Shown here piece after piece: positions 18,539 to 34,018 of a stretch of DNA of 46,756 nt. The position numbers and the translations under genes are program-made. The notes under the pieces are model-generated. The model had not been told where the DNA came from and did not search any database. It was given only the letters and a program-made list of their open reading frames with translations. Positions within the stretch are counted from its first letter, which is position 1, and every line of letters starts with the position of its first letter. Source of the DNA: Candidatus Acidiferrales bacterium. Its GTDB lineage: Bacteria > Acidobacteriota > Terriglobia > Acidiferrales > UBA7541. The stretch is taken from the NCBI GenBank assembly GCA_035258565.1, contig DATFXF010000279.1:1-46756 (forward strand). Direction: 5' to 3'.

Positions 18539-18662
18539 CGCGCATCGCCCGTCAGGTAAAGCTCCCGAACCCACTCCTCGAGGCGGACCCGAGATCGTCC
18601 GGGACTGCCAAAGCAGCGCGGCAACACTCGATTGCCCGTCGAGACGAACAGGATGCGCGTCG

Positions 18663-19288: not shown

Positions 19289-20167
19289 TTACAGCTTGCC
19301 GTCGGCGGCCTTGGCTTCCGGATATTCGAAGACGCCGCGGCCCGATTTGCGCCCCAGCCGTCCCGCCTTGACGTACTGGCGGAGCAGCGGCGCCGGCCGA
19401 TACTTCTCGCCCAGGGTCTTGTGCAGGTATTCGAGGATGCTGAGCCGGACGTCGAGCCCGACGAGGTCCACCAGTTCAAACGGCCCCATCGGATGGTTCA
19501 GGCCGAGTTTCACAGCCTTGTCGATGTCTTCCGCGGATGCGATGCCTTCCCCGAGCATGGTGAAGGCCTCGTTGCCGATCAGGACGTTCAGGCGGCTGGT
19601 GATGAAGCCGGGCGATTCGCGCGCTACGACGACTTCCTTGCCCATGCGCTGGCCGACTTCACGACAGGTTTCGAGCGTGTCGTCGGAGGTTTCGAGGGCC
19701 CGAACGATCTCGAGCAGCTTCATCTTCGGAACGGGGTTGAAGAAATGCATGCCCACGCACTTTTCAGGCCGGCACGTCATCGCCGCCATCTCGGTGATGG
19801 AAAGCGAGGAGGTGTTCGAAGCGAAGATGGACCCAGGCTTCGCAAACCTGTCGAGCAGCGTGAAGATCTCGAGCTTCAACTCCATCTCCTCGGGCACCGC
19901 TTCGATGATCAGGTCTGCCTCGCGGCAGGCGTCTTCTACCGAGCGCGCGGTGGTGAGCTGTTTGAGCGCCGTCTCCCTCTGCTCGGATGTAACCTTGCCA
20001 CGCGCGAGCCCTTCGTCAAGCCCTTGGCGGATGTATTCGAGCCCCGCCTCGAGCAGGGGGGCTGAAATGTCTTCGAGAATCGTCCGATAGCCACCCAGGG
20101 CCGCCGCATACGCGATGCCACGCCCCATTGTGCCTGCTCCGATTACGGCAATGGTGTCGATGTTCAT
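19289..20167 (-). CDS. 3-hydroxyacyl/3-hydroxybutyryl-CoA dehydrogenase (Hbd/PaaH-like)
   Basis: The internal ATG gives MNIDTIAVIGAGTMGRGIA (Rossmann fold). NTSSLSI, HFFNPVP and GFITSRL motifs. AAGGAAG SD upstream. Confidence 0.88.
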   Translation of the reverse strand: MNIDTIAVIGAGTMGRGIAYAAALGGYRTILEDISAPLLEAGLEYIRQGLDEGLARGKVTSEQRETALKQLTTARSVEDACREADLIIEAVPEEMELKLEIFTLLDRFAKPGSIFASNTSSLSITEMAAMTCRPEKCVGMHFFNPVPKMKLLEIVRALETSDDTLETCREVGQRMGKEVVVARESPGFITSRLNVLIGNEAFTMLGEGIASAEDIDKAVKLGLNHPMGPFELVDLVGLDVRLSILEYLHKTLGEKYRPAPLLRQYVKAGRLGRKSGRGVFEYPEAKAADGKL

Positions 20168-20187
20168 CCGTGCTTCCTTGGCTTCCT

Positions 20188-20862
20188 CTAGCATCCTGGA
20201 ACCACTGGCACTCCACTCTTCTCCATCGTTCGGCTGCGCACCTCGTCGCCGATCTCGAGCAACTGACGTGCTGCGCGCCGGGCCGATTCCTGTGCCGGGC
20301 GCGTGACGGCGAGGCTCCCCAGCAACCGGCACCCCGCTTGTTGGTGACTCTCTTCATCGGGGTTGATGACCTCCCGGTAGAGGTCGGCGAGGTGCTCTTG
20401 CCCGATGCCTTCGAGAAACTTCAGGAACTGGGCATTGCGTCGGCCGCCCATGGCCTCGCGCGCCACCAGCGCGGCGGCGATGCGCTCGACAGTGGTCTCG
20501 AGCGTGCGCAGGTAGGCCAGCACGGGACTGGGCGGATCAAGCGGGTCATAGCCCTGGAGGCTGATGCCCAGCCGCTCGGCGTTCTCCGCGAGCAATTGGA
20601 AGTGTCGTGCCTCGTCGCCCGCATGGCGAGCGAAGACCAACTTGGCCTCGAGTTCCGGAGTCGTCGAGACCCACTCCGCCGCGATTGCTGCCGCTTCCAT
20701 CTCGTTCTTGAGCGCCATCTTGAGAAGCGCTCCGAGCGTGCCTACGGCACCCCCCTGCCCTGTCATGGCCGGAGCAGCATCGAGCTTGGCCAGCCACTTC
20801 TCGTTCTCGGCCACGAGTTGCTCGACGAACCCTTTGCTGTCCATGGCCGCATGCATGCTCAT
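20188..20862 (-). CDS. Ferritin-like diiron-carboxylate protein, function unknown
   Basis: Two E...ExxH pairs are visible: KNEMEAA ... DEARH and REAMGG ... EESH. The start overlaps the amidohydrolase stop in an ATGA arrangement. Confidence 0.6.
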   Translation of the reverse strand: MSMHAAMDSKGFVEQLVAENEKWLAKLDAAPAMTGQGGAVGTLGALLKMALKNEMEAAAIAAEWVSTTPELEAKLVFARHAGDEARHFQLLAENAERLGISLQGYDPLDPPSPVLAYLRTLETTVERIAAALVAREAMGGRRNAQFLKFLEGIGQEHLADLYREVINPDEESHQQAGCRLLGSLAVTRPAQESARRAARQLLEIGDEVRSRTMEKSGVPVVPGC

Positions 20863-21722
20863 GCGTTCTGAGGAATCAGCGGGAACAGCCGCGCCGCATT
20901 GTCATAGAGAATCTTGCGCCGGGCCAATTCCGAGAGCGGCAGCCGCAGGAACTTTTCAATATTGCCGCGCACGTCCGGCACACCCGGGCCCGGCCAATCC
21001 GTGCCGAACAAGACTTTATCGGCGATCTCCTCGAGCCGGGGAAAATACTCCAGCAGCTTCGCGGGCGGAATGCCAGAAATGTCCAGATGGAAGTTCAGAT
21101 GCCGGCGGACGAGGAAAAAGGCCTCTTTCATCCAGAGCGGACGCCCGCCGTGCGCCAGGATCACGACGAGGCCCGGAAAGTCTACGCCCAGGTCGTCAGC
21201 CAGCATCGGTTGAGCATGGACGTTGCGGGCCCCGGGAAAGATTGAAGTGCCCGTGTGGATCATCACCGGCAGGCCGTTCGCCTGCGCTCTTTCGTAAACG
21301 GCCGCCAAGGGTCCCAGGCCGTTGCGATAGGCATTGGGCGCAAACAACTGATGCGACGGGTGCACCTTGAGCCCGCGGATGCCGATCTTTGCCAGCCGGT
21401 CCACTTCGGCGCCGGCATCGGCGACGTATCTCGGGTGCACCGAGCCGAAGGCGATCAGCCGCTGGGGCGCGGCGCTCGCATAGCGTGCGACCCAATCGTT
21501 GACCTCCGGCGGGAATCCGATCACATCAGGGCTCACGTAGTTGATCAGTCCGGCGCGTTCCACACCCGCCTCGTCCAGAAATTCGAGAAAGGCCGACGGG
21601 TCCTTTGAGAACCTCTCCAGTTGGTCGAAATCGCGCCTCCCACGCTTCATGAGCTCGAGCGCCGCGGGCTTGAACAGATCGAGCGGCTGGATGTGGACGT
21701 GAATGTCGATTACCGGAAGCAC
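20859..21722 (-). CDS. Amidohydrolase_2 family metal-dependent hydrolase/decarboxylase (ACMSD/LigI/LigW-like)
   Basis: VIDIHVHIQP HxH motif, ...VHPSH..., ...VILAHGG..., ...FGTDWP. The start is reassigned to GTG 21722, preceded by AGGAG with a 6-nt spacer, 13 nt after the upstream stop. Confidence 0.75.
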   Translation of the reverse strand: MLPVIDIHVHIQPLDLFKPAALELMKRGRRDFDQLERFSKDPSAFLEFLDEAGVERAGLINYVSPDVIGFPPEVNDWVARYASAAPQRLIAFGSVHPRYVADAGAEVDRLAKIGIRGLKVHPSHQLFAPNAYRNGLGPLAAVYERAQANGLPVMIHTGTSIFPGARNVHAQPMLADDLGVDFPGLVVILAHGGRPLWMKEAFFLVRRHLNFHLDISGIPPAKLLEYFPRLEEIADKVLFGTDWPGPGVPDVRGNIEKFLRLPLSELARRKILYDNAARLFPLIPQNA

Positions 21723-21735
21723 CTCGAGCTCCTGG

Positions 21736-22755
21736 TCAGTTTGCCGCCGGAGGCGCGGGCCCGCCGTTCTCCGCCTGCCAGGCCTCCTCCAATGCGCGGC
21801 GGGTGAACAGGCGAACCATCTCACGGCGGTACACCGGCGTTGAGGCCGAAGTAGTCAGCGGCTTGCCCGTGCGAATCGCTTCGCGCGCGACGCGCTCAAC
21901 CAGTTCTGGGGAATACCGCTGGCCCGCCAAGTATTCCCCGGCCTCACGGACAATGAGTGGCGCCGGATTGAGCGCAGTGATCGCGACACGCGCATCGCGG
22001 CAGACGCCGCTCGGGTCCACCTTGAGCGTGACCGCAACACCCGCCAGCGGATAATCAATGGAATTGCGGATGCGCAGCTTGTGGTAGATCCCGCGGCGGT
22101 CCGCTGTGCCTCGGGGCAGGTAAACGGCGGTGACCAACTCGTCAGGCGCGAGGGCAATGCGGTTCATGCCGTCGTTCAAGTAGAACTCCGCGAGCGGCAG
22201 TCGGCGTGCGCCGCGCGGACCCGCAATTTCAATCTCCGTGTCGAGCGCCAGAAGGGCTGGCGCCGAATCGCCCGACCAGACGGCCCAGCAGCGCTTACCG
22301 CCGGGTGCCACGTGGCAGCGGTCACCGTCCTTTTTGAGGCAATATCCGAGCGATTTCCGCCAGAAATAGGACTGGTTGTACCAGAGGCAGCGCGTCTCGA
22401 GACACAGGTTGCCGCCGAGCGTGCCCATATTCCGCTGCAAGGGCCCGGCGATGGTCCGAACGGCGCTGGCCAAGACGGGGTACTTTGCGCGCACGACCGG
22501 CGACTCGGCAATCTCGCTCAGCGTCGTCAGCGCGCCGATGCGTAGCGTGCCCGCGGCGACAGTGGTGATGTCACGGAGCTCGCGAATCGGCTTGATGTCC
22601 ACGAGCACTCGCGGCGAGAAGAGCTTCATCTGCAGATTCGGCACGACGTCGGTGCCGCCGGCAATGATCATGGCCTCCGGGCCGTACTCCGCGAGGAGGT
22701 GCACCGCCTCGGGGATGCTCTTCGGGCGCGCCAGGGTGGCAGCCGGCATCGTCAT
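21736..22755 (-). CDS. FAD-binding subunit of a xanthine-dehydrogenase-family enzyme with an extra Cys-rich (probable Fe-S) insertion; 4-hydroxybenzoyl-CoA reductase beta-like
   Basis: IIAGGTDVVPNL FAD motif. Insertion C118-x4-C123-x15-C139-x7-C147-x8-C156 (NLCLETRCLWYNQSYFWRKSLGYCLKKDGDRCHVAPGGKRCW). 339 aa is longer than ordinary CoxM-type subunits. Confidence 0.7.
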   Translation of the reverse strand: MTMPAATLARPKSIPEAVHLLAEYGPEAMIIAGGTDVVPNLQMKLFSPRVLVDIKPIRELRDITTVAAGTLRIGALTTLSEIAESPVVRAKYPVLASAVRTIAGPLQRNMGTLGGNLCLETRCLWYNQSYFWRKSLGYCLKKDGDRCHVAPGGKRCWAVWSGDSAPALLALDTEIEIAGPRGARRLPLAEFYLNDGMNRIALAPDELVTAVYLPRGTADRRGIYHKLRIRNSIDYPLAGVAVTLKVDPSGVCRDARVAITALNPAPLIVREAGEYLAGQRYSPELVERVAREAIRTGKPLTTSASTPVYRREMVRLFTRRALEEAWQAENGGPAPPAAN

Positions 22756-25076
22756 CGCGCGCCGCCTTTCTCCCGTTTGACCGCTCCGCCGCCCCGCAGT
22801 TGCTTGTCGTGGAGCGCGGCCAGAACCTTTTCGGGAGTAATCGGCAGCGAGTGAATACGCACCCCGACCGCGTCATAGATGGCGTTGGCGACGGCCGGGA
22901 TGGTGGCCGCGAGCGAGCCTTCACCGGCCTCCTTGGCACCGAAGGGGCCCTCGGGATCCATGCTTTCGACGATGATGGACTCTATCTCCGGCGTCTCCAG
23001 CGTGGAAGGAATGCGGTACTCGAGCAGCGTCGGGTTCATCAGTCGGCCCTTGTTCCAGAGCATCTCTTCCTGAAGGGCCTGGCCGAGCCCCATATAAACG
23101 GAGCCTTCGATCTGCCCCTCGACGGTCAAGGGGTTGAGCGCTTTGCCGCAATCGTGCGCGGCGATGATCCGGTGGACTTGGATCTGGCCGGTCTCCGTGT
23201 CCACGGAAACCTCGGCGACCTGTGCGCTGTAGCTGTACGATGGCGAAGGCCCTACGCCGGCACCCTTGAATTTTCCGCCGCGCGCCTCTTCGGGCGGAGC
23301 GTAGGTGCCTTGAGCCACAAGCGCGCCGCGGAAATCGAGCGCCGCGCCCACCGCTTCTTCAAAGCGCAGACGAAGGCGCGAGTCGTCCAAAGTAAAAACC
23401 ATGTCGTCGCGCGCCTCGAGCAGCTGCGGGTCGCATCCGAACTTGCGCGCCACCCCTTCCAGGATTTGAGCGCGCATATTCTTCGCCGCTTCGAGACACG
23501 CATTTCCGGCCATAAACGTGACACGGCTCGAATAGCTGCCGAGGTCCACCGGAGTCAGTTCGGTATCGGCGGCAACGAGCTTGATTCGTTCCGGGCGCAC
23601 GCCCAGCACTTCGGCCACAATCTGCACCTGAATTGTGTCTGAGCCCTGGCCGATCTCCGAAGCGCCCGTGTATAGCGTCACCGCCGCATCTCGATCGATC
23701 TTGATGTGCACCGTGGTATGCGGCATGTTCGAGCGGATGATCGGGTTCGCTGCCCCGCTGACGTAATGGCTGCAGGCCAGGCCCACGCCGCGCCCAAAGG
23801 GCAACCGACCTTTCTTTGCCGCCCAGCCGGAGCGCTCAACGACCTTTTCGATGCACTCCGGCAGGCCATAGCTGGTCACGCGTAGTCCGTTGGCCGTGAG
23901 GCAGGGAGCCTTCAGGAGATTGCGCCGGCGGACTTCAGCGGGGTCGAGTCCCGCGTCGTGCGCCAGCGCATCGAGCATGACCTCAAACGCGAAGCGGACG
24001 TTCACCGTACCGTGGCCGCGCATGGCCCCGCAGGCAGGCTTGTTCGTGAGAACGCGGTAGCCATCAAAGCGCACGTTGGGAATGTCGTAGATGGCGCCCA
24101 GCAGCGCGCCCGAGTAGAGCACGGTGACTGGTCCGTAGCCGCAGTAGGCACCACCATCCTGCACGACCCGCGCCGCCACGGCGCTGATCTTTCCCTCGCG
24201 GGTGAGGCCAACCTTCAGGTCCACGATGGTAATGGGCCGGCCTCGATGCGCATAAAAAACCTCCTCGCGCGTATAAGTGATTTTCACCGGCCGGTAAGCC
24301 TTCTTCGCAAGCACCGGCGCGGCCACCTCGAGCGGGATCACTTCGCTCTTGCCGCCAAATCCGCCGCCGACGAGCGGTTTGATCACGCGGATCTGGCTCA
24401 TGGGCATCTCGCAGACTTCGGAGATGGTGCGATGGAGGTAGTAGGGGACCTGAGTGGAAGAGTAAACGGTCAGCCGGCCGTCGGGCTCCCAGACGGCCAG
24501 CGTCGAATGCGGCTCCATGGCCGCGTGCGTAACCTCACCTGCGAAGTAACGCTCCTCGCGAACGAACGTCGCCTCGGCGAATCCTTTTTCCACATCGCCG
24601 AACACATGGTGATACTCCTTTTCGATGTTGTTCGGCTTGCTTTCGTGAATCCAATCGCGCGTGGCCTGCATGGATTCGAGCGGATCGAACCATGCCGGCA
24701 GCAGTTCGTAATCCACCTCGATCAGGTCGAGTGCCTGCTCGGCGAGCTCGAGGCTCACGGCCGCGACGGCAGCAAGGTTGTCGCCGATGTAGCGCGCCTT
24801 ATCCAGTGCAAAGACACGCTCGTCGTGGCCGATGGGCAGGATGCCATAGGGGTGGGGCGCATCACCCCCCGTCGCAACCGCTTTGACGCCGGGCAGGGCT
24901 TCCGCCTTCGAGGTATCGATTGCGCGAATGCGGGCGTGGGCGTGCGGCGAATGAAGAATCTTGCCGTAAAGCATTCCCGGCACAAGGAGGTCGTCGGCGT
25001 ATTTGCCGAGGCCGGTGATCTTGGCCGGAGCGTCGGTCATGGGAAGGGGCTGCCCGATGATGGAATGAGGCGCCAT
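22752..25076 (-). CDS. Molybdopterin-binding large subunit of a xanthine-dehydrogenase-family enzyme (4-hydroxybenzoyl-CoA reductase alpha-like)
   Basis: 774 aa. Aldehyde oxidase/xanthine dehydrogenase a/b hammerhead and MoCo-binding patterns (GGGFGGK, ...GQG..T). 4-nt overlap with the FAD subunit gene. Confidence 0.8.
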   Translation of the reverse strand: MAPHSIIGQPLPMTDAPAKITGLGKYADDLLVPGMLYGKILHSPHAHARIRAIDTSKAEALPGVKAVATGGDAPHPYGILPIGHDERVFALDKARYIGDNLAAVAAVSLELAEQALDLIEVDYELLPAWFDPLESMQATRDWIHESKPNNIEKEYHHVFGDVEKGFAEATFVREERYFAGEVTHAAMEPHSTLAVWEPDGRLTVYSSTQVPYYLHRTISEVCEMPMSQIRVIKPLVGGGFGGKSEVIPLEVAAPVLAKKAYRPVKITYTREEVFYAHRGRPITIVDLKVGLTREGKISAVAARVVQDGGAYCGYGPVTVLYSGALLGAIYDIPNVRFDGYRVLTNKPACGAMRGHGTVNVRFAFEVMLDALAHDAGLDPAEVRRRNLLKAPCLTANGLRVTSYGLPECIEKVVERSGWAAKKGRLPFGRGVGLACSHYVSGAANPIIRSNMPHTTVHIKIDRDAAVTLYTGASEIGQGSDTIQVQIVAEVLGVRPERIKLVAADTELTPVDLGSYSSRVTFMAGNACLEAAKNMRAQILEGVARKFGCDPQLLEARDDMVFTLDDSRLRLRFEEAVGAALDFRGALVAQGTYAPPEEARGGKFKGAGVGPSPSYSYSAQVAEVSVDTETGQIQVHRIIAAHDCGKALNPLTVEGQIEGSVYMGLGQALQEEMLWNKGRLMNPTLLEYRIPSTLETPEIESIIVESMDPEGPFGAKEAGEGSLAATIPAVANAIYDAVGVRIHSLPITPEKVLAALHDKQLRGGGAVKREKGGAR

Positions 25077-25079
25077 GTC

Positions 25080-25586
25080 TCAGCGTTCCACCGGCGCCTG
25101 AGCGGCGGCAGCGCGGGATGACGCGCGCTCGATGGCCAGCTTCACGGATTCGTAGATCTGCATGTAGCCAGTGCAGCGGCAGAGATTCGAGGAGAGCGCA
25201 TCGCGGATCTCCTCAAGCGTCGGGCGCGGGCGGCGATCCAGCAGGGCCTTCGTGGCAATCAGAAACCCCGGGGTGCAGTAACCGCACTGCGCGCCGCCGG
25301 CCACCGCAAACCCTTCCTGCACGGGATCGAGCTCGCCCGGCGGCGCGATGCCCTCGACGGTGACAATCTCCTCCTCCTGGTAGCAGGAGGCGATGGCCAC
25401 GCAAGACAGCATGGGCACGCCGTCCACGAGCACCGCACAACAGCCGCAGCTCGAATCATCGCAACCGCGCTTGGAGCCTGTGAGGCCCAGGTCCTCGCGC
25501 AGCACATCGAGGAGCAGCTTGCTGGGCGGGACGGCAGCCTCGTGCACCTCGCCGTTCACCTTCAGACGAATCAGCTCTTTCGCCAT
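25080..25586 (-). CDS. [2Fe-2S]-binding small subunit of the same enzyme (gamma-like)
   Basis: GCDDSSCGCCAV plant-type cluster and CGYCTPG ... CRCTGY second cluster. 3-nt gap to the large subunit gene. Confidence 0.85.
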   Translation of the reverse strand: MAKELIRLKVNGEVHEAAVPPSKLLLDVLREDLGLTGSKRGCDDSSCGCCAVLVDGVPMLSCVAIASCYQEEEIVTVEGIAPPGELDPVQEGFAVAGGAQCGYCTPGFLIATKALLDRRPRPTLEEIRDALSSNLCRCTGYMQIYESVKLAIERASSRAAAAQAPVER

Positions 25587-25628
25587 GGAATCGAATCCCC
25601 TAGCCCAGTGGTCCGGGCTTGACGGCTC

Positions 25629-26552
25629 TCAATATCCGAAGTCGGCGGGCGCAGAGTAGGCATGCCGACGCACGCCCAAGGTTTCCACTCGGCACGCGCC
25701 GAGCCGATTCATATACTCACGCCGGTCAGCCACACCACTGACCCAGTGTTCGAGCCAGCGTTCGAAATCCTCAAGCTGCCGGCTCTGCTCGTGATACTGG
25801 CTGAAAAATTCGTGGTCGCGCCCGTAATAGCCCTGCACCGGCGAAGGGTGCGCGCCCCAGGGTTCGTGCACCACCGCCGCCACCAGGAACCCAGGAATGA
25901 CCGTTCGATTTGGATCCGAGGCGATGACCTCCGGCGGAACGATCTCCTCGGCGACCACGATCACCTTGCGAGCGGCTCGCGCGCCGTCCACGGCCACGCC
26001 CAGGTTGCCCCACAGATGCGTATTGCCAAACGCGTCGGCGCGCTGCGCATGGATGATGGCCACGTCAGGTCGCAGCGCACGCACCGCGATCAGTTTTTCC
26101 TCGTTCACCGGCGAAGAAAACTCGCGCAAGTTGCCATTTTTCTTAAGCAGGTCGCTGCCCAGGGTTGCATAGGTGGGCATGAACGGCACCCCCAGCGCCC
26201 CCGCATGCAATGCGAGCGCCAAGGTCAAATTCGAATAGTCCACCATCTGCACCGCCCGCGGGATGTGACGCTCGACCGCACGACGAAAGCAGTAGCCCAC
26301 ACCCGCCGAAACGTTGCCCACCCACGCCGCCAGGACCTTGGCGACCGAACCAGCGCCAATCATCTGGTCAAACAGGATGTCGGAAATCGGCCCCACGAGC
26401 GTGAGGTCGCGGCATCCTTGGCGGATGATCTCGTGTCCGGCGGCGAAGGGGATCATCTGCTCGAGCTGAGCGCCCATCAGAATCATCGAGCCCGAGGGTA
26501 CGTGCTGTGCGATCGCTTCCCCGATGGGAATGAGTTTGGAGGCCGCGCTCAT
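25629..26552 (-). CDS. Class I CoA-transferase subunit A (glutaconate CoA-transferase GctA-like)
   Basis: 307 aa. The N-terminus KLIPIGEAIAQHVPSGSMILMGA and overall pattern are typical of GctA/AtoD-like alpha subunits. Confidence 0.7.
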   Translation of the reverse strand: MSAASKLIPIGEAIAQHVPSGSMILMGAQLEQMIPFAAGHEIIRQGCRDLTLVGPISDILFDQMIGAGSVAKVLAAWVGNVSAGVGYCFRRAVERHIPRAVQMVDYSNLTLALALHAGALGVPFMPTYATLGSDLLKKNGNLREFSSPVNEEKLIAVRALRPDVAIIHAQRADAFGNTHLWGNLGVAVDGARAARKVIVVAEEIVPPEVIASDPNRTVIPGFLVAAVVHEPWGAHPSPVQGYYGRDHEFFSQYHEQSRQLEDFERWLEHWVSGVADRREYMNRLGACRVETLGVRRHAYSAPADFGY

Positions 26553-26565
26553 CGTCTTCCGACCC

Positions 26566-27345: not shown

Positions 27346-28133
27346 CGTCCGGTCCAGAACCCCGCGGGATCGATCTCGCGCATGGCGGCAAGCTCGGCCG
27401 CGCTGGGCGATGGGGTCTCCAGCAGCTTGTCCGCCAGGCGCAGCGTCCAGCCGCTATTCGACAGCACGTCTTCGACGCGCACTCCGGGGTGGACGGAGGC
27501 GAGATAGGCCTCGCCGTCGTTAGTGAAGCGCAGCACGCCGAGCGTGGTGATGATCGCGGAAGGCCCCGAGCGTGCCGGCAGGCCCTGAGCGCGTCGCCAG
27601 CTATCGCCCGACCCATAGCCCGGCGAAGTGAGGTAGCTGACGCGCTCGACCAAACGCGAGCGGTCATGTTCGAGCAGCACCACGGTGCGTTGCGCAAGGC
27701 AGGCGATGTCGCAGGCGCCACCTGAGCCCGGCAGGCGGATGGTTTCTCCGCCTCGATGTCCCCAAGTGGAATTCAAGTTGCCGAAGCGGTCCACCTCCGC
27801 CGCGCCGAGAAAGCCCGTGTGCACCCGCCCCTGTTGCAGCAGACTCATGACGTCCAGCATCTGGCCGCACAGTGTGGCGCCGCGAAGATTCGGCGGGTCC
27901 GCCATCGTGTAGAGAAGTTCCTGGGCCGGCTCGTCGCGGATCACCCCGTTTTCGTAGAGACCGATGGCCGTCGGCGCGTGCGTGCGTCGCGCCACCAGGA
28001 ACGCCAGCAGCGGCAGGCGCATGCCCACAAACACCAACTCCGCGTCGCGGATTTCGCGGGCAGCGGCGGCCACCATCAGCTCTCCGAGCGAGTAGCCGCG
28101 GGCCGACATTTCCGTCTGTGTAGGGGAAGCCAT
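27342..28133 (-). CDS. Class I CoA-transferase subunit B (GctB-like) with the catalytic ENG glutamate
   Basis: 263 aa. GLYENGVI (the (S)ENG motif carrying the CoA-accepting Glu), ...LPGSGGACDIA. Confidence 0.7.
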   Translation of the reverse strand: MASPTQTEMSARGYSLGELMVAAAAREIRDAELVFVGMRLPLLAFLVARRTHAPTAIGLYENGVIRDEPAQELLYTMADPPNLRGATLCGQMLDVMSLLQQGRVHTGFLGAAEVDRFGNLNSTWGHRGGETIRLPGSGGACDIACLAQRTVVLLEHDRSRLVERVSYLTSPGYGSGDSWRRAQGLPARSGPSAIITTLGVLRFTNDGEAYLASVHPGVRVEDVLSNSGWTLRLADKLLETPSPSAAELAAMREIDPAGFWTGR

Positions 28134-28147
28134 CGCGCGCCGTGGTG

Positions 28148-29266
28148 CTATTCGATGGATCCTTTCGGGGTGATCCAGTTGGGCTCGTTCACCTGGATTT
28201 CATTTACCAGCTTGACGTCTTCCGGCTGCGGCAGCACTTGGCGACAGTGCTCCTCGTATTCGCTCTCGGTGAGCAGCTCGCCGGTCACGCTATAGGGCTG
28301 GTTGGCAAACTCGCCGATGTGACGGTTGAACTTCAGGTCTGGCACGTAGAGGTTCGGCTGGCCCGGAGCGATGTTCTTGTTGATCTGCCCGATCAGCTTC
28401 TGGCACTCCTGGTGAAAGAGCGCGCGGCTGTGCTCGTTCATATGCTCGAGGTCCGCTTCCTGCTTGGCCTGCGGCTCGTCGTAGCGGCCCTTGAGGCCCC
28501 AGACATAGAACCAGTGCGCCGAGCTCGAGCGGTCCACGCCGAACAGGTCATAGCTCACTGGCACCCACTTGTTGATGAACTTCTGCACGATCGGGAGCGG
28601 CACCACGCCGGCCTTGACGATTCGCTTCACGCCGTCCTGCCCGGTGCCCAAGTGGAAGGATTCCTCCTTGAGCATGGGGATCATGGATTGCGCCAGCGGC
28701 GCAAAGCCGGAGTAGCTGAGCATAGTGAGTTGGAACTTTCCGTCGCGATCGACGAAATCTGTGTAGGTGAAGAAGTCGAGCCAGTTATTGACATCCTGGT
28801 TGAAGGCACCGAGCAGGCGCCTCTGCTCAAACGCGCGCCGCTCGAGCATCTTCTGCGCTTCGACGCGCCCGCTGTAACCGAAATGGTTGATCAGCAGGTG
28901 GCACATCTGCCAGCCGTGGCGCATCTCCTCTGTCACAACGCGGCAGAGCGACTGCCGGTCGTGCTCCGAGGGAGCGGCCTCAAACAGCCGCCGCTGCTGC
29001 TCGACAGAAGCAAACTCCGTGTCCCCCTGATAGACGATCAAGTTGAGCAGCGCGTCGCGCATGCGCTGGTCCGGAATCTGGATCACCTTCTCCCATTTTG
29101 GCCGACCCTGGAAGGCGCCGAACTCGACTTCGTTTGAGCGCGTGGGGCCGAACTTGGCCTCGAACTTGTAGTTGACGATTTCCGGGTAGTCCACCCCGAT
29201 ATCCTTCTGCCAGACGCGAAACAGGTCCACCCAATCGTCAAAGGTGGCAATGCGCTTTGCGGGCAT
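28148..29266 (-). CDS. BoxB-like diiron oxygenase (benzoyl-CoA 2,3-epoxidase subunit B family), short form
   Basis: IVYQGDTEFASVEQQRRL, TEEMRHGWQM (ExxH), GAFNQDVNNWLDFFTYTDFVDRDGKFQL and LKEESFHLGTG (ExxH) correspond to blocks I recall from Azoarcus BoxB. At 372 aa it is shorter than the roughly 470 aa I recall. AGGAGGAG SD upstream. Confidence 0.7.
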   Translation of the reverse strand: MPAKRIATFDDWVDLFRVWQKDIGVDYPEIVNYKFEAKFGPTRSNEVEFGAFQGRPKWEKVIQIPDQRMRDALLNLIVYQGDTEFASVEQQRRLFEAAPSEHDRQSLCRVVTEEMRHGWQMCHLLINHFGYSGRVEAQKMLERRAFEQRRLLGAFNQDVNNWLDFFTYTDFVDRDGKFQLTMLSYSGFAPLAQSMIPMLKEESFHLGTGQDGVKRIVKAGVVPLPIVQKFINKWVPVSYDLFGVDRSSSAHWFYVWGLKGRYDEPQAKQEADLEHMNEHSRALFHQECQKLIGQINKNIAPGQPNLYVPDLKFNRHIGEFANQPYSVTGELLTESEYEEHCRQVLPQPEDVKLVNEIQVNEPNWITPKGSIE

Positions 29267-29421
29267 GATTGCGGCTCCTCCTGATTTGAGCTTGCGAAAC
29301 TCGAGATGGCTTTCCCCGAATGCGCTCGAACGGTGAGCCCGCCACTAGGGGCCGAGAACCCCGACCGAGCTCGGAATGTTTGGCTTCGCTCCGCAGGACC
29401 GCATTGGGGTACCTCGGTGCG

Positions 29422-30237
29422 CTAACGACCTTGGAAGCGCGGAGGGCGTTTCTCGAAGAACGCCCGGATGCCCTCTCCCGAGTCGTCGGATTCGAAGCAC
29501 CGCATCTGCGTCGCGACCTCGAATTCGAGTGCGCGCTCTAGCTCCGCGCGGTCGTTGCCAAACAGCACCTGTTTGATCCCGCGGACAACGAGCGGAGGCG
29601 CCTGGGCCAGACGCTCGGCAAGCGCGCGCGTCTCTGCGGCCAGCCGCTCGGGCGCGACGACACGGTTCAGCAGGCCCAGCCGCTCGCCCTCGCGCGCGTC
29701 GATCATTTCGCCAGTGTAAAGCATCTCCGCCGCGCGCGACGCTCCGACCAGGCGCGGCAACAAGAATGTTGCGCCGTAGTCCGGGAACAAACCCACGCGG
29801 GCAAAGCTCTGGCCGAGCACGGCCTCTTCCGAGGCTATGCGGATGTCCGAAGCCAGCGCCAGGTTCATTCCCGCGCCCGCCGCGGGCCCATTCACTTGAG
29901 CAATGATGGGCTTCGGCATGGTGCGCATCCCGACCACGATCTCGACCCCGGCGCGCAGCAGGGGCTCCAGCTCACGGCTCCGACCGCTTGCGCGCGCCTC
30001 CTGGATGAGCTTCAGATCGCCCCCGGAGCAGAACGCCCTCCCCGTGCCGGTCAGTACCACAACGCGAATCTGTGGGTCTTCTGCCACCCGCGCCATCGCC
30101 CGGGCAAGCTCGGTGCTCAACTCCACGTTGAGCGCGTTGAGCCGCTCGGGGCGGTTCATCGTGAGCGTGACCACCGGACCCTCGCGCGTTTCGAGCACGA
30201 GGCTGGTCCGGGTAGCGGGTTGTTCGGCTTGGGGCAC
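29422..30237 (-). CDS. PaaG-like crotonase-fold isomerase (1,2-epoxyphenylacetyl-CoA isomerase / enoyl-CoA isomerase type), lacking both hydratase glutamates
   Basis: VVTLTMNRPERLNAL, NGPAAGAGMNLALASDIRIA (Asn where hydratases have Glu), GQSFARVGLFPDYGATFLLPRLVG (no PE; Asp present as in PaaG). Closely resembles E. coli PaaG by eye. Confidence 0.7.
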   Translation of the reverse strand: MPQAEQPATRTSLVLETREGPVVTLTMNRPERLNALNVELSTELARAMARVAEDPQIRVVVLTGTGRAFCSGGDLKLIQEARASGRSRELEPLLRAGVEIVVGMRTMPKPIIAQVNGPAAGAGMNLALASDIRIASEEAVLGQSFARVGLFPDYGATFLLPRLVGASRAAEMLYTGEMIDAREGERLGLLNRVVAPERLAAETRALAERLAQAPPLVVRGIKQVLFGNDRAELERALEFEVATQMRCFESDDSGEGIRAFFEKRPPRFQGR

Positions 30238-30244
30238 GAACCTC

Positions 30245-30754
30245 CTAGTCCCTCAGGCCCTTCAGCACTTGACCGAGCTGGCGAAAGCGGCGGAGCTTCT
30301 GCCCGCGGTCGACGGCGTTTTGCCCGCTGGTCGAGGGCAACACGAAGACCAGTGCGCCGTAGAGCCGCTCCTTCTGCAAGCCAAGCTTGCAAGAACGCTG
30401 GGCAAATTTCTCGAACACTAGCTTGCCGTTGAAGGCAATGACGCGTGGCGCATACTGTTCAAGCTTGTGTGCCAACAGGACGCGGCCTTCGGCAACCTCG
30501 TGCCGGTCAATCTCTTCGATCCCTCGCGTGGGGCGCTTGACGAGATCGGTCAGCCCGATGCCGAACTCAATCAGGCGCTTATCGTCCTGGTAATCGAGCA
30601 GTTCCGGCACAATCCCCCCATCGTAGAGCAGGGGCCAGAACAGATTGCCGCGGCCAGCGTAATAGTGGCCCAGACGCGCCGAGCGTTCCCCGGGATTGAA
30701 GCCCACCACCACCAGCTTCATTCCGCGCCGCAGATAGTCGGGTAGCGTGCGCAT
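30245..30754 (-). CDS. mug: G/U mismatch-specific (Mug/family 2) uracil-DNA glycosylase
   Basis: MKLVVVGFNPGERSARLGHYYAGRGNLFWPLL and VLPSTSG match the Mug GINPG...N.FW and PNPSG motifs. 169 aa. The ATG abuts the aldehyde dehydrogenase TAG with no gap. Confidence 0.8.
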   Translation of the reverse strand: MRTLPDYLRRGMKLVVVGFNPGERSARLGHYYAGRGNLFWPLLYDGGIVPELLDYQDDKRLIEFGIGLTDLVKRPTRGIEEIDRHEVAEGRVLLAHKLEQYAPRVIAFNGKLVFEKFAQRSCKLGLQKERLYGALVFVLPSTSGQNAVDRGQKLRRFRQLGQVLKGLRD

Positions 30755-32224
30755 CTAGGCCAGGTTCACCCACACGCTCTTCACCTGGGTGTAGTGTTCA
30801 ATGGCGTGCATGCCGAGTTCGCGGCCGTAGCCGCTCATCTTATAGCCGCCGAAGGTCGCTGCGGGGTCGTAATTATTGTAGGTGTTGATCCACACGGTTC
30901 CGGCCTGAAGCCTGCGCGCCATGCGATGCGCCTTGGCGATATCGCGCGTCCAAACGGCCGCCGCCAAACCGTAGGGCGTTTCGTTCGCCTGGCGCACCGC
31001 ATCCTCGATCTCGCCGAATTCGATGCTCGCCAGGACCGGCCCAAAGATCTCTTCGCGAGCGATGGTCATGTCGTTGCGCACGCCGTCAAAAACGGTTGGC
31101 TGGACAAAAAAGCCTTGGCCGTCGCCCACACGGACCCGCTCGCCGCCGGCGACGAGCCGGGCGCCCTCGCTCTTTCCCTTTTCGATGTAACCCAGGACGG
31201 TTTGCATCTGCCGCTCACTGACCAGCGCGCCGAAGCGCGTCTTGGGATCGAGCGGGTCAGCCGGCTGGAGCTTCTTCGCGCGCTCGACCAGCCTCCCCAT
31301 GAAGTCATCGTGGATCTTCTTTTCGACAAAGAGCCGCGAGCCGGCCGCACAGACTTCGCCCTTGCCGTAAAAGATGCCGATCGTCGCGCCGCGGACGGCA
31401 GCCTCGAGATCGGCATCTGCAAACACGATGTTGGGCGACTTGCCACCCAGCTCCAGCGTGACGCGCTTCAACGTATCGGCCGAATCCCGCAGGATCTCCT
31501 GCCCGGTTCGTGTCTCCCCGGTGATGGCCACCTTGGCCACGCCGGGATGCCGGACCAGGGCCTTGCCCAACGTCGAGCCGGGCCCGGTGAGGACATTGAC
31601 CACGCCGTCGGGCACGCCGGCCTCCTGGCAGATCTCCGCAAAGCGCAGCGCCGTCAGCGGTGTCCAACTGGCAGGCTTGAGCACGACGGTGTTCCCCGCC
31701 GCGAGCGCCGGCGCCACCTTCCAGGAGGCCAGCAACAAGGGAAAATTCCACGGCACGATCGCGGCGACGACGCCCAAGGGTTCACGTAGCGTATAGTGGA
31801 GGAACGGCCCGCGGACCGGCACCGTCTCGCCGTGAATCTTCGTCGCCCAGCCGGCATAGTAGCGAAAAACCTCCGCCACCATGGGCATGTCAATCTGGCG
31901 CGACTCGGAGATAGGCTTGCCGTTGTCGAGCGTCTCGAGCCTGCCGAGTTCTTCCCTGTACTTGTCGATGAGGTCGCCGATCTTCCACAGCAACCGGGCG
32001 CGGTCGGAGGCGCTCATCTCCGGCCAGGGGCCGGATTCGAAGGCTTGGCGCGCGGCCCCGACGGCAGCATCTGCGTCGCGCTCATCGCCTTCGGCAATCA
32101 CCGTGAGCATCTCGCCCGTGGCGGGATTGATGGTGGGGAAGGTCTTGCCGGAGGCGGACTCGACCCACTTGCCGCCGATGAACAGCTTTCCTGGTTTCAC
32201 CTGAACCTGCGGTGCGCTGGCCAT
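30755..32224 (-). CDS. NAD(P)-dependent aldehyde dehydrogenase
   Basis: LFIGGKWVES...INPATGE, VTLELGGKSP, GEVCAAGSR (catalytic Cys), EEIFGPV. The start is placed at the internal ATG 32224, which has a GAGAGGA SD. Confidence 0.9.
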   Translation of the reverse strand: MASAPQVQVKPGKLFIGGKWVESASGKTFPTINPATGEMLTVIAEGDERDADAAVGAARQAFESGPWPEMSASDRARLLWKIGDLIDKYREELGRLETLDNGKPISESRQIDMPMVAEVFRYYAGWATKIHGETVPVRGPFLHYTLREPLGVVAAIVPWNFPLLLASWKVAPALAAGNTVVLKPASWTPLTALRFAEICQEAGVPDGVVNVLTGPGSTLGKALVRHPGVAKVAITGETRTGQEILRDSADTLKRVTLELGGKSPNIVFADADLEAAVRGATIGIFYGKGEVCAAGSRLFVEKKIHDDFMGRLVERAKKLQPADPLDPKTRFGALVSERQMQTVLGYIEKGKSEGARLVAGGERVRVGDGQGFFVQPTVFDGVRNDMTIAREEIFGPVLASIEFGEIEDAVRQANETPYGLAAAVWTRDIAKAHRMARRLQAGTVWINTYNNYDPAATFGGYKMSGYGRELGMHAIEHYTQVKSVWVNLA

Positions 32225-32379
32225 GGGATCCTCTCTTCCGTTGCTCAGATGGGGCACAAACTTTGCGCGGCTGATTCCTCATCGAGGCTGGTTTTCAGCG
32301 GAGCATTGCTCCCAGCCCGAGCCTTCCTCTCCACCGGCGTTCCTTCCTCGCCCACTTGAGAGTCTCCGGGGGCGCGCGG

Positions 32380-33189
32380 TCACTTGCCCCGGAACTGCGG
32401 GTGCCGCTTCTCCACGTAAGCCGAGAGCCCTTCCTTGGCATCCTCGCTGGTGAAAAGCAACTGTTGCAATTCGCGCTCCAGGGCCAGCGCTTCGGCAAAC
32501 GGCACCTCTGCGCCGGTCACCACGGCACGCTTGATGCGGCCCACCGCGCGGGCGGCCTTGTTGGGCGGGCAGAACTGCCGGGCATAGGCCATCACGTCGT
32601 CCCAGAAGGTGTCGCGGTCATAGAGGTAGTGGATCAGGCCGAACTCGAGCGCTTCTTCAAAGCTGAACGTGCGGCCGGTGGCCATCAACTCGAGAGCACG
32701 CGCCTTGCCGATGACGCGCGCGAGACGCTGCGTGCCTCCCGTGCCAGGCAGCACTCCGAGGTTCACCTCGGGCAAGCCGATCTTGCCGCCTTCCTGCTTG
32801 GCGATGCGGATGTCGCAGGCGAGTGCGATCTCGAGGCCGCCGCCGACCGTGTGACCGTTGAGCGCCGCGAGGACAAGCTTTGGCGTCTGCTCCAGCCGGT
32901 TCAACGTTTCATTGGCGTGCAGGCAGAAGTAGTATTTGAACTGCGGGTCGGCTTTGGCCAGCATGGGAATGCTCGCGCCGGCCGAGAAGAATTTCTGGCC
33001 CGCGCCGCGCAAGACCAGCACGTGGACGTTCTCGTCCATGCGCGCGCGCAGGATGGCTTCGTCGAGCTGCTGCATCATCTCGTAGGTGTAGGTGTTGGCC
33101 GGCGGGTCATCCATTTCCAAAATGGCCACACCGTTGTCCACCTGGTAGTGCAGCAACTCCTTCTGTTCAACTGCCTGCGTGGTCGCCAT
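32380..33189 (-). CDS. Enoyl-CoA hydratase (canonical, both Glu present)
   Basis: FFSAGASI, GHTVGGGLEIALACDIRIA, GLPEVNLGVLPGTGGTQRL. Confidence 0.85.
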   Translation of the reverse strand: MATTQAVEQKELLHYQVDNGVAILEMDDPPANTYTYEMMQQLDEAILRARMDENVHVLVLRGAGQKFFSAGASIPMLAKADPQFKYYFCLHANETLNRLEQTPKLVLAALNGHTVGGGLEIALACDIRIAKQEGGKIGLPEVNLGVLPGTGGTQRLARVIGKARALELMATGRTFSFEEALEFGLIHYLYDRDTFWDDVMAYARQFCPPNKAARAVGRIKRAVVTGAEVPFAEALALERELQQLLFTSEDAKEGLSAYVEKRHPQFRGK

Positions 33190-33227
33190 CGTTCTCCTCC
33201 CCTGGGTGAGAATTGGGGTTCTGAGGT

Positions 33228-33902
33228 TTACGCCGAGGCCCGCGCCCGGTGCTGCGGGAGGCCCCGCCCGATGGGCAGGGGCCGCGCCCGTCGAGCAGCC
33301 TGGCCGTTCCCCACGCCCTCAAGAAAAATGTCCGCCACGATCTCCGCCAGCCGGTCCGCCGGGGGATCCACCCGCGGATGGTGCCAGGTGTAAATCCAGT
33401 TCATCATCCCGAACAGGCTCAGGACGGCGACGCGCGGATTCATGCGGCGCACGCGACCGCCGGCCCGCAGTTCGTCAAAAATGCTACGCGCCAACTGGTA
33501 ATAGCGCCGCTTGATCTCCGCCACTTCCCGGCGGTAGGGGTCTTCGAGCGCCAGGTCTTCGTGGGCCAGGACCTTCATCTCCATGGGGTGGCGCAGGAAG
33601 TACTCAATGTGATTCGCGACCAACGTGCGCAAACGCTCCTCGGGGTCGAGCAGGCCGGCTAGGCGGCGTTCGAGGCGTTGCAGGATGCTCGTAAACGCAT
33701 GTATTTGGATGAGATAGAGGAGCTTCTGCTTGCTCTCGAAATAGTAGTAGAGACCCGAGAGCGAAACGCCACTGGCCCGGCTGATGTCGCGGATCGAAGC
33801 CCCCTCGAAGCCCTTTTCACTGAACACGCGCGCGGCCTGGCGCAGAATGCGCTGCAGCTTGGCCTGGGAGTCGCGGTGGTTGTTGGGAGCGCTTCGGGGC
33901 AC
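33228..33902 (-). CDS. TetR/AcrR family transcriptional regulator
   Basis: ILRQAARVFSEKGFEGASIRDISRASGVSLSGLYYYFESK helix-turn-helix. GTG start. It heads the minus-strand cluster. Confidence 0.88.
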   Translation of the reverse strand: MPRSAPNNHRDSQAKLQRILRQAARVFSEKGFEGASIRDISRASGVSLSGLYYYFESKQKLLYLIQIHAFTSILQRLERRLAGLLDPEERLRTLVANHIEYFLRHPMEMKVLAHEDLALEDPYRREVAEIKRRYYQLARSIFDELRAGGRVRRMNPRVAVLSLFGMMNWIYTWHHPRVDPPADRLAEIVADIFLEGVGNGQAARRARPLPIGRGLPQHRARASA

Positions 33903-33912: not shown

Positions 33913-33928
33913 TCGAACGTTCGTTCGA
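33913..33928. promoter_or_regulatory. Candidate TetR operator: overlapping palindromes TCGAAC-N4-GTTCGA and CGAACGTTCG
   Basis: TCGAACGTTCGTTCGA lies 11 nt upstream of the TetR start, in the TetR / ECF-sigma divergent intergenic region. It contains a perfect 10-bp palindrome (33914-33923) and a 6-bp inverted repeat with a 4-bp spacer. Confidence 0.35.
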
Positions 33929-34018
33929 AAAATAGCGCGAGACGCCGAGAATGTCAAGGGCTGAAACGATCTGCATCCTGGGCCAGATCCATGGCGTCGA
34001 ATAAAGAGTAGGGACGAC

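Follow-up and report, generated by a model that had tools for sequence, protein, structure and literature searches.

Does the run of minus-strand genes at positions 19289-33902 of contig DATFXF010000279.1, from a Candidatus Acidiferrales bacterium (assembly GCA_035258565.1), encode one pathway in which a reductive dehydroxylation of the anaerobic type and an oxygen-dependent ring attack serve the breakdown of the same aromatic compounds? We examined the 46,756-nucleotide (nt) stretch that holds this run (hereafter the window), following a preliminary description of the sequence that had seen in it a candidate undescribed pathway of coenzyme A (CoA) thioesters. Our reading, to which we assign a probability of about one half, is that the genes form one repressor-controlled chromosomal operon for the breakdown of para-hydroxylated benzoic-type aromatics as CoA thioesters. 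The two proteins on which this reading turns are a molybdenum (Mo) enzyme of the HcrCAB type and a short BoxB-family diiron protein, encoded close together under a single candidate operator.

The list of open reading frames (ORFs), together with Pfam and NCBIfam scans, resolves an uninterrupted co-directional run of 15 genes (n=15) rather than the 16 first counted, and the preliminary description's own gene list also sums to 15. Its gene order and minus-strand continuity agree with ours, as do the spacing by short gaps and 4-nt overlaps with two 155-nt gaps and, at the superfamily level, the family labels. Gene starts were picked from Shine-Dalgarno sequences and homologue lengths. Distances between genes within the cluster range from -4 to 42 nt, the two 155-nt spacers excepted. 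In order of transcription, with the predicted product, its length in amino acids (aa) where relevant, and the distance to the next gene, the cluster reads as follows.

33228..33902, minus strand: TetR-family repressor of the acyl-CoA-sensing type (Pfam TetR_N and TetR_C_24); gap 38 nt.
32380..33189, minus strand: ECH1, canonical crotonase-type enoyl-CoA hydratase, 269 aa (Pfam and NCBIfam); gap 155 nt, or 122 nt with the alternative ALDH start GTG 32257.
30755..32224, minus strand: ALDH, NAD(P)-dependent aldehyde dehydrogenase, betaine-aldehyde/phenylacetaldehyde-dehydrogenase-like (Pfam Aldedh, 616 bits; alternative start GTG 32257); gap 0 nt, the Mug start abutting the ALDH stop codon.
30245..30754, minus strand: Mug/TDG-family DNA glycosylase (Pfam UDG; NCBIfam mug families below cut-off); gap 7 nt.
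29422..30237, minus strand: PaaG-like, a PaaG-type crotonase with an isomerase signature (residue signature and PDB matches); gap 155 nt.
28148..29266, minus strand: BoxB-like, short BoxB-family diiron oxygenase, 372 aa (TIGR03225, 236.9 bits against a cut-off of 499.1, in three stretches); gap 14 nt.
27342..28133, minus strand: CoAT-B, GctB-like CoA-transferase beta subunit (Pfam CoA_trans; PDB 1poi_B, 118 bits); gap -4 nt.
26566..27345, minus strand: ECH2, canonical enoyl-CoA hydratase encoded between the two CoA-transferase subunit genes (Pfam and NCBIfam); gap 13 nt.
25629..26552, minus strand: CoAT-A, GctA-like CoA-transferase alpha subunit (PDB 1poi_A, 169 bits); gap 42 nt.
25080..25586, minus strand: HcrC-type 2x[2Fe-2S] subunit (Pfam Fer2_2/Fer2; TIGR03193, 173.6 bits against a cut-off of 257.8); gap 3 nt.
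22752..25076, minus strand: HcrA-type molybdopterin subunit (TIGR03194, 1031 bits against a cut-off of 994.55); gap -4 nt.
21736..22755, minus strand: HcrB-type FAD subunit with [4Fe-4S] loop insertion (TIGR03195, 340.5 bits against a cut-off of 404.55); gap 13 nt.
20859..21722, minus strand: Amidohydrolase_2 protein, an ACMSD/LigW-like metal-dependent TIM barrel (Pfam; start GTG 21722 with an AGGAG Shine-Dalgarno sequence); gap -4 nt.
20188..20862, minus strand: DUF455-like ferritin-like protein (Pfam DUF455, 24.8 bits, below cut-off); gap 20 nt.
19289..20167, minus strand: HBD, Hbd-like short-chain 3-hydroxyacyl-CoA dehydrogenase, 292 aa (Pfam 3HCDH_N/3HCDH; start ATG 20167); gap 47 nt to a Macro-domain gene.

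The GC content is even across the cluster region, and terminator-like sites occur at background level (14, against 12.9 in shuffled sequence). Scans of the cluster found no Rfam family and no tRNA. The two 155-nt gaps hold no operator copy, no Rfam match and no notable inverted repeat; in the spacer before the BoxB-like gene, which is the one that was aligned, nothing is conserved beyond the Shine-Dalgarno sequence.

Evidence for common control comes from the head of the run, where the only good sigma70-like site on the coding strand is followed directly by a palindrome.

33929..33957, minus strand: sigma70-like promoter TTGACA-17 nt-TATTTT, upstream of the TetR gene (consensus scan 10/12 and direct reading).
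33913..33928: perfect palindrome TCGAACG-TT-CGTTCGA with the core GAACGNNCGTTC, located after the -10 box and before the TetR start codon; probable TetR operator.

The same layout of -35 box, -10 box, palindrome and start codon is found in related Acidoferrales and Terriglobales loci. The palindrome core GAACGNNCGTTC (GAACG-NN-CGTTC) is present as a single copy in the 46.7-kb window. In the TetR-headed loci it lies each time (55 of 55) between -200 and +60 relative to the TetR start, and those 55 sites upstream of TetR account for every match to the core in 1.1 Mb. It matches the published operator consensus, 5'-CNAACGNNCGTTNG-3', of Thermus thermophilus PaaR, a TetR-family phenylacetate regulator that heads its own operon and is followed there by the oxygenase genes (PMC6651687). 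Every NCBIfam match of the window regulator falls below cut-off, Bacillus FadR being among the weak ones (60.4 bits against 200). Its best PDB matches are the TetR regulators 5k7f and 3vpr, which we take to be the CoA-ester sensors AibR and PfmR. The promoter and operator evidence supports one repressor-controlled transcription unit, headed by TetR as had been proposed, with weak internal promoters within the cluster also possible.

As judged from its sequence, the Mo enzyme is of the 4-hydroxybenzoyl-CoA-reductase type. HcrA scores 806 bits against Thauera HcrA (PDB 1rm6_A), with the next family or structure at 294, which places it 2.7-fold nearer in bits to the Thauera protein than to any hydroxylase structure. 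HcrB aligns without gaps to 1rm6_B through the cysteine-rich [4Fe-4S] insert of about 40 residues and keeps all five cysteines, and CO dehydrogenase, nicotinate dehydrogenase and other relatives align with it solely outside this insert. Because the alpha subunit exceeds its equivalog cut-off, scores so highly against the Thauera enzyme and is accompanied by a conserved [4Fe-4S] loop, we file the enzyme as Hcr-type, and what had been listed as a reductase-like trio thus proves to be HcrCAB-type. The beta (HcrB) and gamma (HcrC) subunits remain under the Hcr equivalog cut-offs; for beta, the Hcr model is still the top-scoring family. Plasmid-borne Hcr homologues are all at most 39% identical and were uninformative for context. 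Elsewhere in the window (38612-40768) lies a gene for a 718-aa fused E1 alpha/beta component of a 2-oxoacid dehydrogenase (E1_dh, Transket_pyr and Transketolase_C); its product is not a ferredoxin-dependent 2-oxoacid oxidoreductase, and so it offers Hcr no evident supply of electrons.

The diiron protein is BoxB-like and not PaaA-like in both its scores and its predicted fold, and to that extent the label that it had been given stands; it fails the BoxB equivalog cut-off, however, and lacks a BoxA or BoxC partner. It reaches 186 bits against the BoxB structure 3per and 38.6 bits against the PaaA model TIGR02156, whose cut-off is 280. Its AlphaFold2 (AF2) model, with a predicted local distance difference test score (pLDDT) of 82, matches BoxB (3q1g/3pm5) in Foldseek with a template-modelling (TM) score of 0.82, and the next matches, SSO1313 and PaaA, reach 0.50. 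In alignment it is 40% identical to a 475-aa BoxB, relative to which about 45 residues at the N terminus, two internal stretches and the tail at the C terminus are missing. Within a representative library of 1.84 billion proteins, its full-length relatives, of 367-383 aa, form a small group apart from the BoxB proteins of 445-495 aa (32-45% identical).

The diiron ligands of BoxB are Glu120, Glu150, His153, Asp211, Glu240 and His243, and the second shell that orients the benzoyl group comprises Gln116, Thr119, Ser123, Phe193, Phe203/206 and Thr210 (PMC5489048). The window protein has the full set of six iron ligands, as have nine of the ten short-family members aligned; the exception is P0170 (33% identity), in which most are lost. 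Gln116, Thr119, Ser123, Phe193 and Phe203 are identical in the window protein. Phe206 is replaced by Tyr in every ligand-bearing short-family member examined, and Thr210 by Val or Ile in most of them (by Gln in one); long BoxB proteins have Phe at 206 and mostly Thr at 210. Given these F206Y and T210V changes, the substrate may differ from plain benzoyl-CoA. To judge by residues and model, the protein is in all likelihood a working diiron oxygenase whose substrate is an ester resembling benzoyl-CoA; it is not a BoxB orthologue and has no dedicated reductase at the loci examined.

The usual partners of such oxygenases were also sought. Genes for PaaB, PaaC, PaaD or PaaE were not found among the scanned window ORFs, and no BoxC orthologue lies within 10 kb in 87 related loci, the only signal being a weak crotonase-domain similarity to ECH1 (80 bits over 132 aa). 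We rejected ECH1 as a BoxC equivalent in view of this score and its canonical hydratase residues. In a canonical box locus used for comparison (L088), the gene order is BoxC-BoxB-BoxA. The preliminary description had remarked on the absence of a BoxA-type reductase, BoxC, a thiolase, an aryl-CoA ligase and a ferredoxin, and none was found among the long window ORFs that were scanned, short ORFs of a size that could hold a small ferredoxin having been left unscanned.

Comparison with other genomes, which the preliminary description had recommended, shows how widely these genes travel together. A scan of species-representative genomes with the BoxB-like protein as query found at least 596 stretches encoding a relative, and the best 80 of these at least 596 were fetched. 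The arrangement recurs in dozens of species-level genomes of two Acidobacteriota orders. In Terriglobales loci, whose BoxB-like protein shows 61% identity, the gene order is TetR-ECH1-ALDH-BoxB-like-CoAT-ECH2-CoAT-HcrCAB-amidohydrolase; many Acidoferrales loci have a reduced form, TetR-ECH1-Mug-PaaG-like-BoxB-like-rhodanese-ArsC-like-HBD; and in Chloroflexi, ECH1 and the BoxB-like gene stand alone among unrelated genes. Wherever an Hcr set occurs in the 80 fetched loci, it follows closely downstream of the BoxB-like gene and belongs to its cluster, the BoxB-like protein having been the query. Pairwise identities of the BoxB-like and HcrA proteins are strongly correlated (r = 0.93; 31 loci and the window), which fits co-inheritance followed by loss and not repeated acquisition.

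Gene presence was counted in the 60 loci with enough flank. ECH1 is present in 58 of them (Chloroflexi two-gene units included), TetR in 49, Mug in 41, PaaG-like in 40, HBD in 36, HcrCAB in 28-29, the amidohydrolase in 27, ALDH in 22, the CoA-transferase in 20-21, ECH2 in 18 and DUF455 in two. ALDH occurs with Hcr in 21 of its 22 loci and ECH2 in 17 of its 18, and the Hcr pairing holds across several architectures, including loci that lack both Hcr and ALDH but carry the CoA-transferase and the amidohydrolase. The cluster is thus modular, with a core of TetR, ECH1 and short BoxB, often joined by the PaaG-type isomerase and HBD, and an accessory set, found in about half of the loci, of ALDH, Gct-type CoA-transferase, ECH2, HcrCAB and amidohydrolase. 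Since Hcr, the CoA-transferase and ALDH are missing from about half of the 60 loci, which have the BoxB-like core nonetheless, the core does not depend on Hcr, and the single linear route first envisaged does not survive.

No reductase, thiolase or ligase family emerged among additional conserved cluster genes in the 80 loci. The only recurring extras are a single-domain rhodanese and an ArsC/glutaredoxin-like CxxC protein, encoded directly downstream of the BoxB-like gene in 41 loci (in L004 at 11195-11518 and 11540-11893) and both absent from the window, which has lost them. They could be thiol or redox helpers or assist sulfuration of the molybdenum cofactor; in one locus (L084), a rhodanese gene also precedes HcrC. 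The same locus, a full-length relative, has a 124-aa glyoxalase/VOC-family gene (8674-9048) between HcrB and the amidohydrolase that is absent from the window.

The remaining enzymes can be placed with varying precision. By its sequence, ECH1 is a canonical hydratase and not a BoxC-type ring-cleaving enzyme: its top PDB match is the Geobacillus hydratase 2ppy (247 bits), and both hydratase glutamates can be read in ECH1 and ECH2 alike. The PaaG-like protein has neither glutamate and keeps the Asp of the 'PD' motif, the same as Thermus PaaG 6sl9 (187 bits), whereas the comparison hydratase 5zai has Glu/Glu and a Gly where PaaG has this Asp. It matches Escherichia coli PaaG (4fzw_C) with 163 bits and the model TIGR02280 with 207.9 bits, short of that model's cut-off of 345.15 and of the scores of several generic crotonase models; the catalytic signature nonetheless bears out the isomerase label. 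HBD is Hbd-like and not PaaH (NF006722, 413 bits against a cut-off of 429; PaaH, 238 against 669). For ALDH, the top NCBIfam families are the betaine-aldehyde (BADH), phenylacetaldehyde (StyD) and HpaE dehydrogenases, at 546-596 bits and all below cut-off. It had been cast as a BoxD/PaaZ-type enzyme acting on ring-opened aldehydes, an assignment that we do not retain; its near-exclusive pairing with Hcr suits an upstream aromatic-aldehyde step at least as well as the oxidation of a ring-opened aldehyde.

Matches of CoAT-A other than GctA include IpdA (64 bits) and 5mzw (66 bits), the latter presumably AibA/AibAB, and the catalytic Glu of 'yENG' in CoAT-B aligns with the Glu of 'vESG' in GctB. 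We considered the pair as an IpdAB-type ring hydrolase or an AibAB-type decarboxylase and set both aside; with matches of 26-69 bits, such functions appear less likely, and because GctAB is the best match and the catalytic Glu is kept, the transferase reading is retained. The amidohydrolase, whose homologues are 281-299 aa long, has invariant H8, H10 and D242, corresponding to the HxH at strand 1 and the late Asp metal ligands. Foldseek matches to its AF2 model (pLDDT 82) are 3irs, LigW, 2,6- and 2,3-dihydroxybenzoate decarboxylases, ACMSD and LigJ, with TM scores of 0.6-0.7 at about 20% identity. In this model it is structurally nearest to aromatic-acid decarboxylases and hydratases, and it belongs to no named family.

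Two products that had been listed with the cluster, Mug and the ferritin-like protein, are better explained as co-transcribed passengers. At the same chromosomal site, two large contigs (L086 and L087, 8000-12700) carry an ECF (extracytoplasmic function) sigma factor, an anti-sigma factor, Mug, the DUF455-like gene, Macro and a methyltransferase, and no CoA-ester gene. The catabolic genes are therefore dispensable at this locus, and the retention of Mug and DUF455 where no CoA-ester gene is present indicates roles independent of the pathway, so that both are probable passengers. The DUF455-like family is small (381 homologues at E <= 1e-3); the window protein has two ExxH motifs and is labelled variously as DUF455, MiaE or PaaA-like by different sources. 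Mug is accompanied by the PaaG-like gene in 40 of its 41 loci. In four Thermoanaerobaculia loci (L061, L064, L070 and L077), the BoxB-like gene is followed by one whose translation, read by eye, is MutY-like; the presence of two different DNA glycosylases beside the short-BoxB gene may be coincidence.

If the genes do form one operon for para-hydroxylated benzoic-type aromatics, TetR would bind the palindrome GAACG-NN-CGTTC abutting the -10 box and be released by an aryl- or acyl-CoA, as are TetR regulators of the PaaR and FadR types. The accessory enzymes would act as a funnel, in which ALDH would turn an aromatic aldehyde into the acid, the glutaconate-type CoA-transferase would form the CoA ester without ATP, and HcrCAB, supplied with electrons by a low-potential ferredoxin whose gene lies elsewhere, would reductively take off the para-hydroxyl to give benzoyl-CoA or a near relative of it; the ACMSD/LigW-like amidohydrolase, of decarboxylase or hydratase type, and ECH2 may perform related side reactions. 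In the core, short BoxB would oxygenate the aryl-CoA ring with O2, most likely by epoxidation, taking electrons from a donor unlinked to the cluster. The PaaG-type isomerase, ECH1 and HBD would then process the non-aromatic product, with thiolase and the remaining steps encoded elsewhere. We infer every substrate here, and the order of the steps.

The families, signatures and linkage fit the composite route put forward in the preliminary description, but the passenger status of Mug and DUF455, the type of ALDH and the lack of an obligatory linear route do not, and its step order stays an inference. A composite aromatic pathway is accordingly plausible but unproven. More tentatively, short BoxB and its canonical crotonase partner may amount to a previously unrecognised aryl-CoA ring-oxygenating system that does without BoxA and BoxC, and, in view of the at least 596 matching stretches in species-representative genomes, to the central aromatic route of soil Acidobacteriota, which in many lineages would be fed directly by 4-hydroxybenzoyl-CoA reductase; this broader proposal is possible, and we hold it with clearly less confidence than that of the single operon.

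A number of observations weigh against the single-operon reading. The score of the BoxB-like protein does not come to half of the BoxB equivalog cut-off, and two of its ring-orienting residues are altered (Phe206 to Tyr and Thr210 to Val); a BoxA match was not found by tblastn in the window or within 10 kb in the 87 related loci, and the long window ORFs scanned yielded no BoxA-type reductase, BoxC, thiolase, aryl-CoA ligase or ferredoxin. ECH1 is a hydratase where a ring-cleaving enzyme might have stood, and no BoxD/PaaZ/PaaN-type model is among the best 25 family matches of ALDH. Short-BoxB members at a greater distance (46-49% identity) are encoded by orphan genes, the core stands without Hcr, ALDH or the CoA-transferase in about half of the well-flanked loci, and the presence counts are not phylogenetically independent. 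The Thauera 4-hydroxybenzoyl-CoA reductase is oxygen-sensitive, which sits poorly with an O2-dependent partner unless the cells are microaerobic.

Some of these points would be explained if two separate modules shared a locus and promoter, the core acting on another CoA ester (a substituted benzoyl-CoA or a non-benzoyl aryl-CoA) while Hcr, ALDH and the CoA-transferase make benzoyl-CoA for a pathway elsewhere, so that Hcr would not feed the BoxB-like enzyme. The loci without Hcr, the ECH1 and BoxB-like pair of Chloroflexi, the way in which ALDH and ECH2 track Hcr rather than the core, and the family-wide F206Y and T210V/I changes all lend themselves to this arrangement. We nevertheless consider it doubtful: Hcr and BoxB-like genes are adjacent under one operator in two orders and have diverged in a correlated manner, all Hcr sets in the 80 loci (retrieved, it should be noted, with the BoxB-like query) lie just downstream of the oxygenase gene, and no other benzoyl-CoA-consuming enzyme is encoded nearby. 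It is unlikely that the core is instead an aliphatic or branched-chain operon of beta-oxidation type, with a FadR/FadB-like pair and Hbd, in which the diiron protein would be an O2-dependent acyl-CoA desaturase or hydroxylase. The structures nearest to TetR (5k7f and 3vpr, taken here as the acyl-CoA-sensing AibR and PfmR), the weak Bacillus FadR match, the canonical beta-oxidation character of ECH1 and HBD, and the lack of an aldehyde dehydrogenase in minimal loci would suit such an operon, but the benzoyl-holding residues Gln116, Thr119, Ser123, Phe193 and Phe203 are kept, BoxB is the nearest fold, far ahead of acyl-ACP (acyl carrier protein) desaturases, the PaaG-type isomerase gene adjoins the BoxB-like gene in 40 of the 60 loci, and the operator matches that of a phenylacetyl-CoA-responsive regulator.

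The Mo enzyme might also be a heteroaromatic acyl-CoA hydroxylase resembling furoyl-CoA dehydrogenase, in which case the amidohydrolase would hydrolyse a lactone or ring, ECH2 would hydrolyse a CoA ester, and the genes would form a Trudgill-type module unrelated to 4-hydroxybenzoate. Amidohydrolase_2 includes lactonases, and neither the beta nor the gamma subunit reaches its Hcr equivalog cut-off. The gene set moreover recalls hmfABCDE in its CoA activation, three-subunit Mo enzyme and crotonase-family protein (PMC3223595). Set against this are the alpha subunit's score above the Hcr cut-off and its bit score for Thauera HcrA, 2.7 times that for any hydroxylase structure, the full conservation of the [4Fe-4S] loop that is the hallmark of an electron-inverted reductase, and an amidohydrolase nearer to the ACMSD/LigW decarboxylases, with no lactonase among its listed Foldseek matches, all of which make the hydroxylase distinctly unlikely. 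That the genes share a strand by chance or mere synteny, with no common function, is very improbable. Mug and DUF455 do look unrelated to the rest and the co-directional genes downstream are housekeeping genes, yet the arrangement is conserved in dozens of species of two orders, the spacing is tight or overlapping, a single operator is conserved, and 13 of the 15 products are an acyl-CoA-sensing-type regulator or belong to families for CoA thioesters or aromatic or aldehyde substrates.

Returning to the single operon, its relation to known systems is one of partial likeness. With the box pathway (Azoarcus evansii BoxA/BoxB, BoxC and BoxD), it shares the BoxB fold, identical iron ligands and the greater part of the benzoyl-orienting residues, a crotonase-family gene that immediately precedes the oxygenase gene (as BoxC does in the BoxC-BoxB-BoxA order of L088), and CoA-thioester chemistry with an aldehyde dehydrogenase in the cluster. 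It differs in that its oxygenase has 372 aa against about 475, is 40% identical, falls below the BoxB cut-off and carries the substitutions at Phe206 and Thr210; in the lack of any BoxA match within 10 kb in the 87 loci; in its neighbouring crotonase, a 269-aa hydratase against the 551-aa BoxC; and in an ALDH that is not BoxD-like. The Thermus paa operon (PaaR, TTHA0973) is likewise a repressor-headed operon that runs into the gene of a diiron CoA-ester oxygenase and whose operator consensus, CNAACGNNCGTTNG, the window palindrome matches. As in the paa pathway, there is a PaaG-type isomerase with the same signature, and the hydratase and 3-hydroxyacyl-CoA dehydrogenase are analogous to PaaF and PaaH; unlike it, the window has no PaaABCDE, its oxygenase being BoxB-like (PaaA only 39 bits), no PaaK ligase, PaaZ, PaaJ or PaaI, and no protein that reaches the PaaG, PaaF or PaaH equivalog cut-off.

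The reductase resembles HcrCAB/HbaBCD of Thauera aromatica and Rhodopseudomonas palustris in its three subunits, C-A-B order, alpha subunit above cut-off and [4Fe-4S] loop, and its co-occurrence with an aldehyde dehydrogenase recalls the Geobacter p-cresol (pcm) cluster, which pairs 4-hydroxybenzaldehyde dehydrogenase with the reductase. Unlike those systems, the window Hcr shares an operon with an O2-dependent diiron enzyme, in Acidobacteriota, and is accompanied by a glutaconate-type CoA-transferase in place of a ligase; the search of its surroundings revealed neither a dedicated ferredoxin nor a benzoyl-CoA reductase, and its beta and gamma subunits are below cut-off. Like GctAB of Acidaminococcus fermentans, the CoA-transferase has two subunits of matching size with 1poi_A/B as best PDB matches and the catalytic Glu kept, though here a hydratase gene sits between the two subunit genes. 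The furoyl-CoA dehydrogenase cluster hmfABCDE of Cupriavidus basilensis (PMC3223595) likewise has an activation step, a crotonase-family protein and a Mo enzyme of three subunits whose substrate is an aromatic acyl-CoA; the window Mo enzyme differs in being Hcr-type with a [4Fe-4S] loop, and the window has no ligase and an additional diiron oxygenase, HmfABC having been compared by description only.

In the literature, which we covered incompletely, so that this is absence of evidence only, we found no description of this cluster, of the short BoxB subfamily, or of an operon joining Hcr to a BoxB-type oxygenase; the claim that the cluster is undescribed can be upheld to that extent. The nearest item is a genome survey of SAR324, in which box genes and an Hcr annotation occur in the same bins, unclustered. 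Our comparisons suggest that the cluster is a variant of the box/paa "hybrid" CoA-thioester aromatic pathways in which the combination of Hcr and short BoxB is apparently new.

The best homologues assign the window to Candidatus Acidoferrales/Acidiferrales within the Acidobacteriota. The genes that flank the cluster are housekeeping genes; upstream, an ECF sigma factor is encoded on the other strand, and downstream of HBD the co-directional run goes on through Macro, a small ORF and a methyltransferase. The small ORF, which lies at 18275-18541 inside the minus-strand ORF 18269-18700 and separates Macro from the methyltransferase, encodes a product without a Pfam family that is 71% identical to a 94-115-aa protein in the same position in 13 related loci. 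Tandem small cupin-domain genes with ChrR-like cupin matches lie at 864-1349 and 1359-1865, followed at 1954-2052 by a bacterial small signal recognition particle RNA (70.8 bits) directly upstream of dnaX (2028-3776), whose called start it overlaps, and by recR (4171-4770), an ordinary housekeeping arrangement. A 903-aa ORF (5296-8007) has as its sole Pfam signal a sub-threshold helical repeat of the apolipoprotein A1/A4/E type (42.6 bits against a cut-off of 90). On the other side of the cluster, a DEAD-box helicase with a C-terminal MrfA zinc-binding domain (41510-43984) is followed by an RNase_H_2-superfamily protein (43903-45285), a pair (41510-45285) that we take to resemble the MrfA/MrfB DNA-repair pair of Bacillus.

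In soil, Acidobacteriota rank with the most abundant bacteria, yet little is known of how they use phenolic acids, those derived from lignin included. The route that the cluster suggests would spare ATP and work at low oxygen, with CoA transfer followed by reductive dehydroxylation and then by a single O2-dependent ring attack. It also brings to light a large, unstudied subfamily of short BoxB proteins that have a recognisable active-site signature, Tyr for Phe206 and Val or Ile for Thr210, and lack a reductase of their own. The conserved candidate operator and its TetR offer a usable handle for reporter and effector assays. Should the link between Hcr and the oxygenase be true, a reductive, "anaerobic" dehydroxylation and an O2-dependent dearomatisation would share one operon and one cell state, and how an oxygen-sensitive Mo/Fe-S reductase works beside an oxygenase would become a question in its own right. 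The "hybrid" CoA-thioester strategy of the box and paa pathways would then extend to hydroxylated aromatics.

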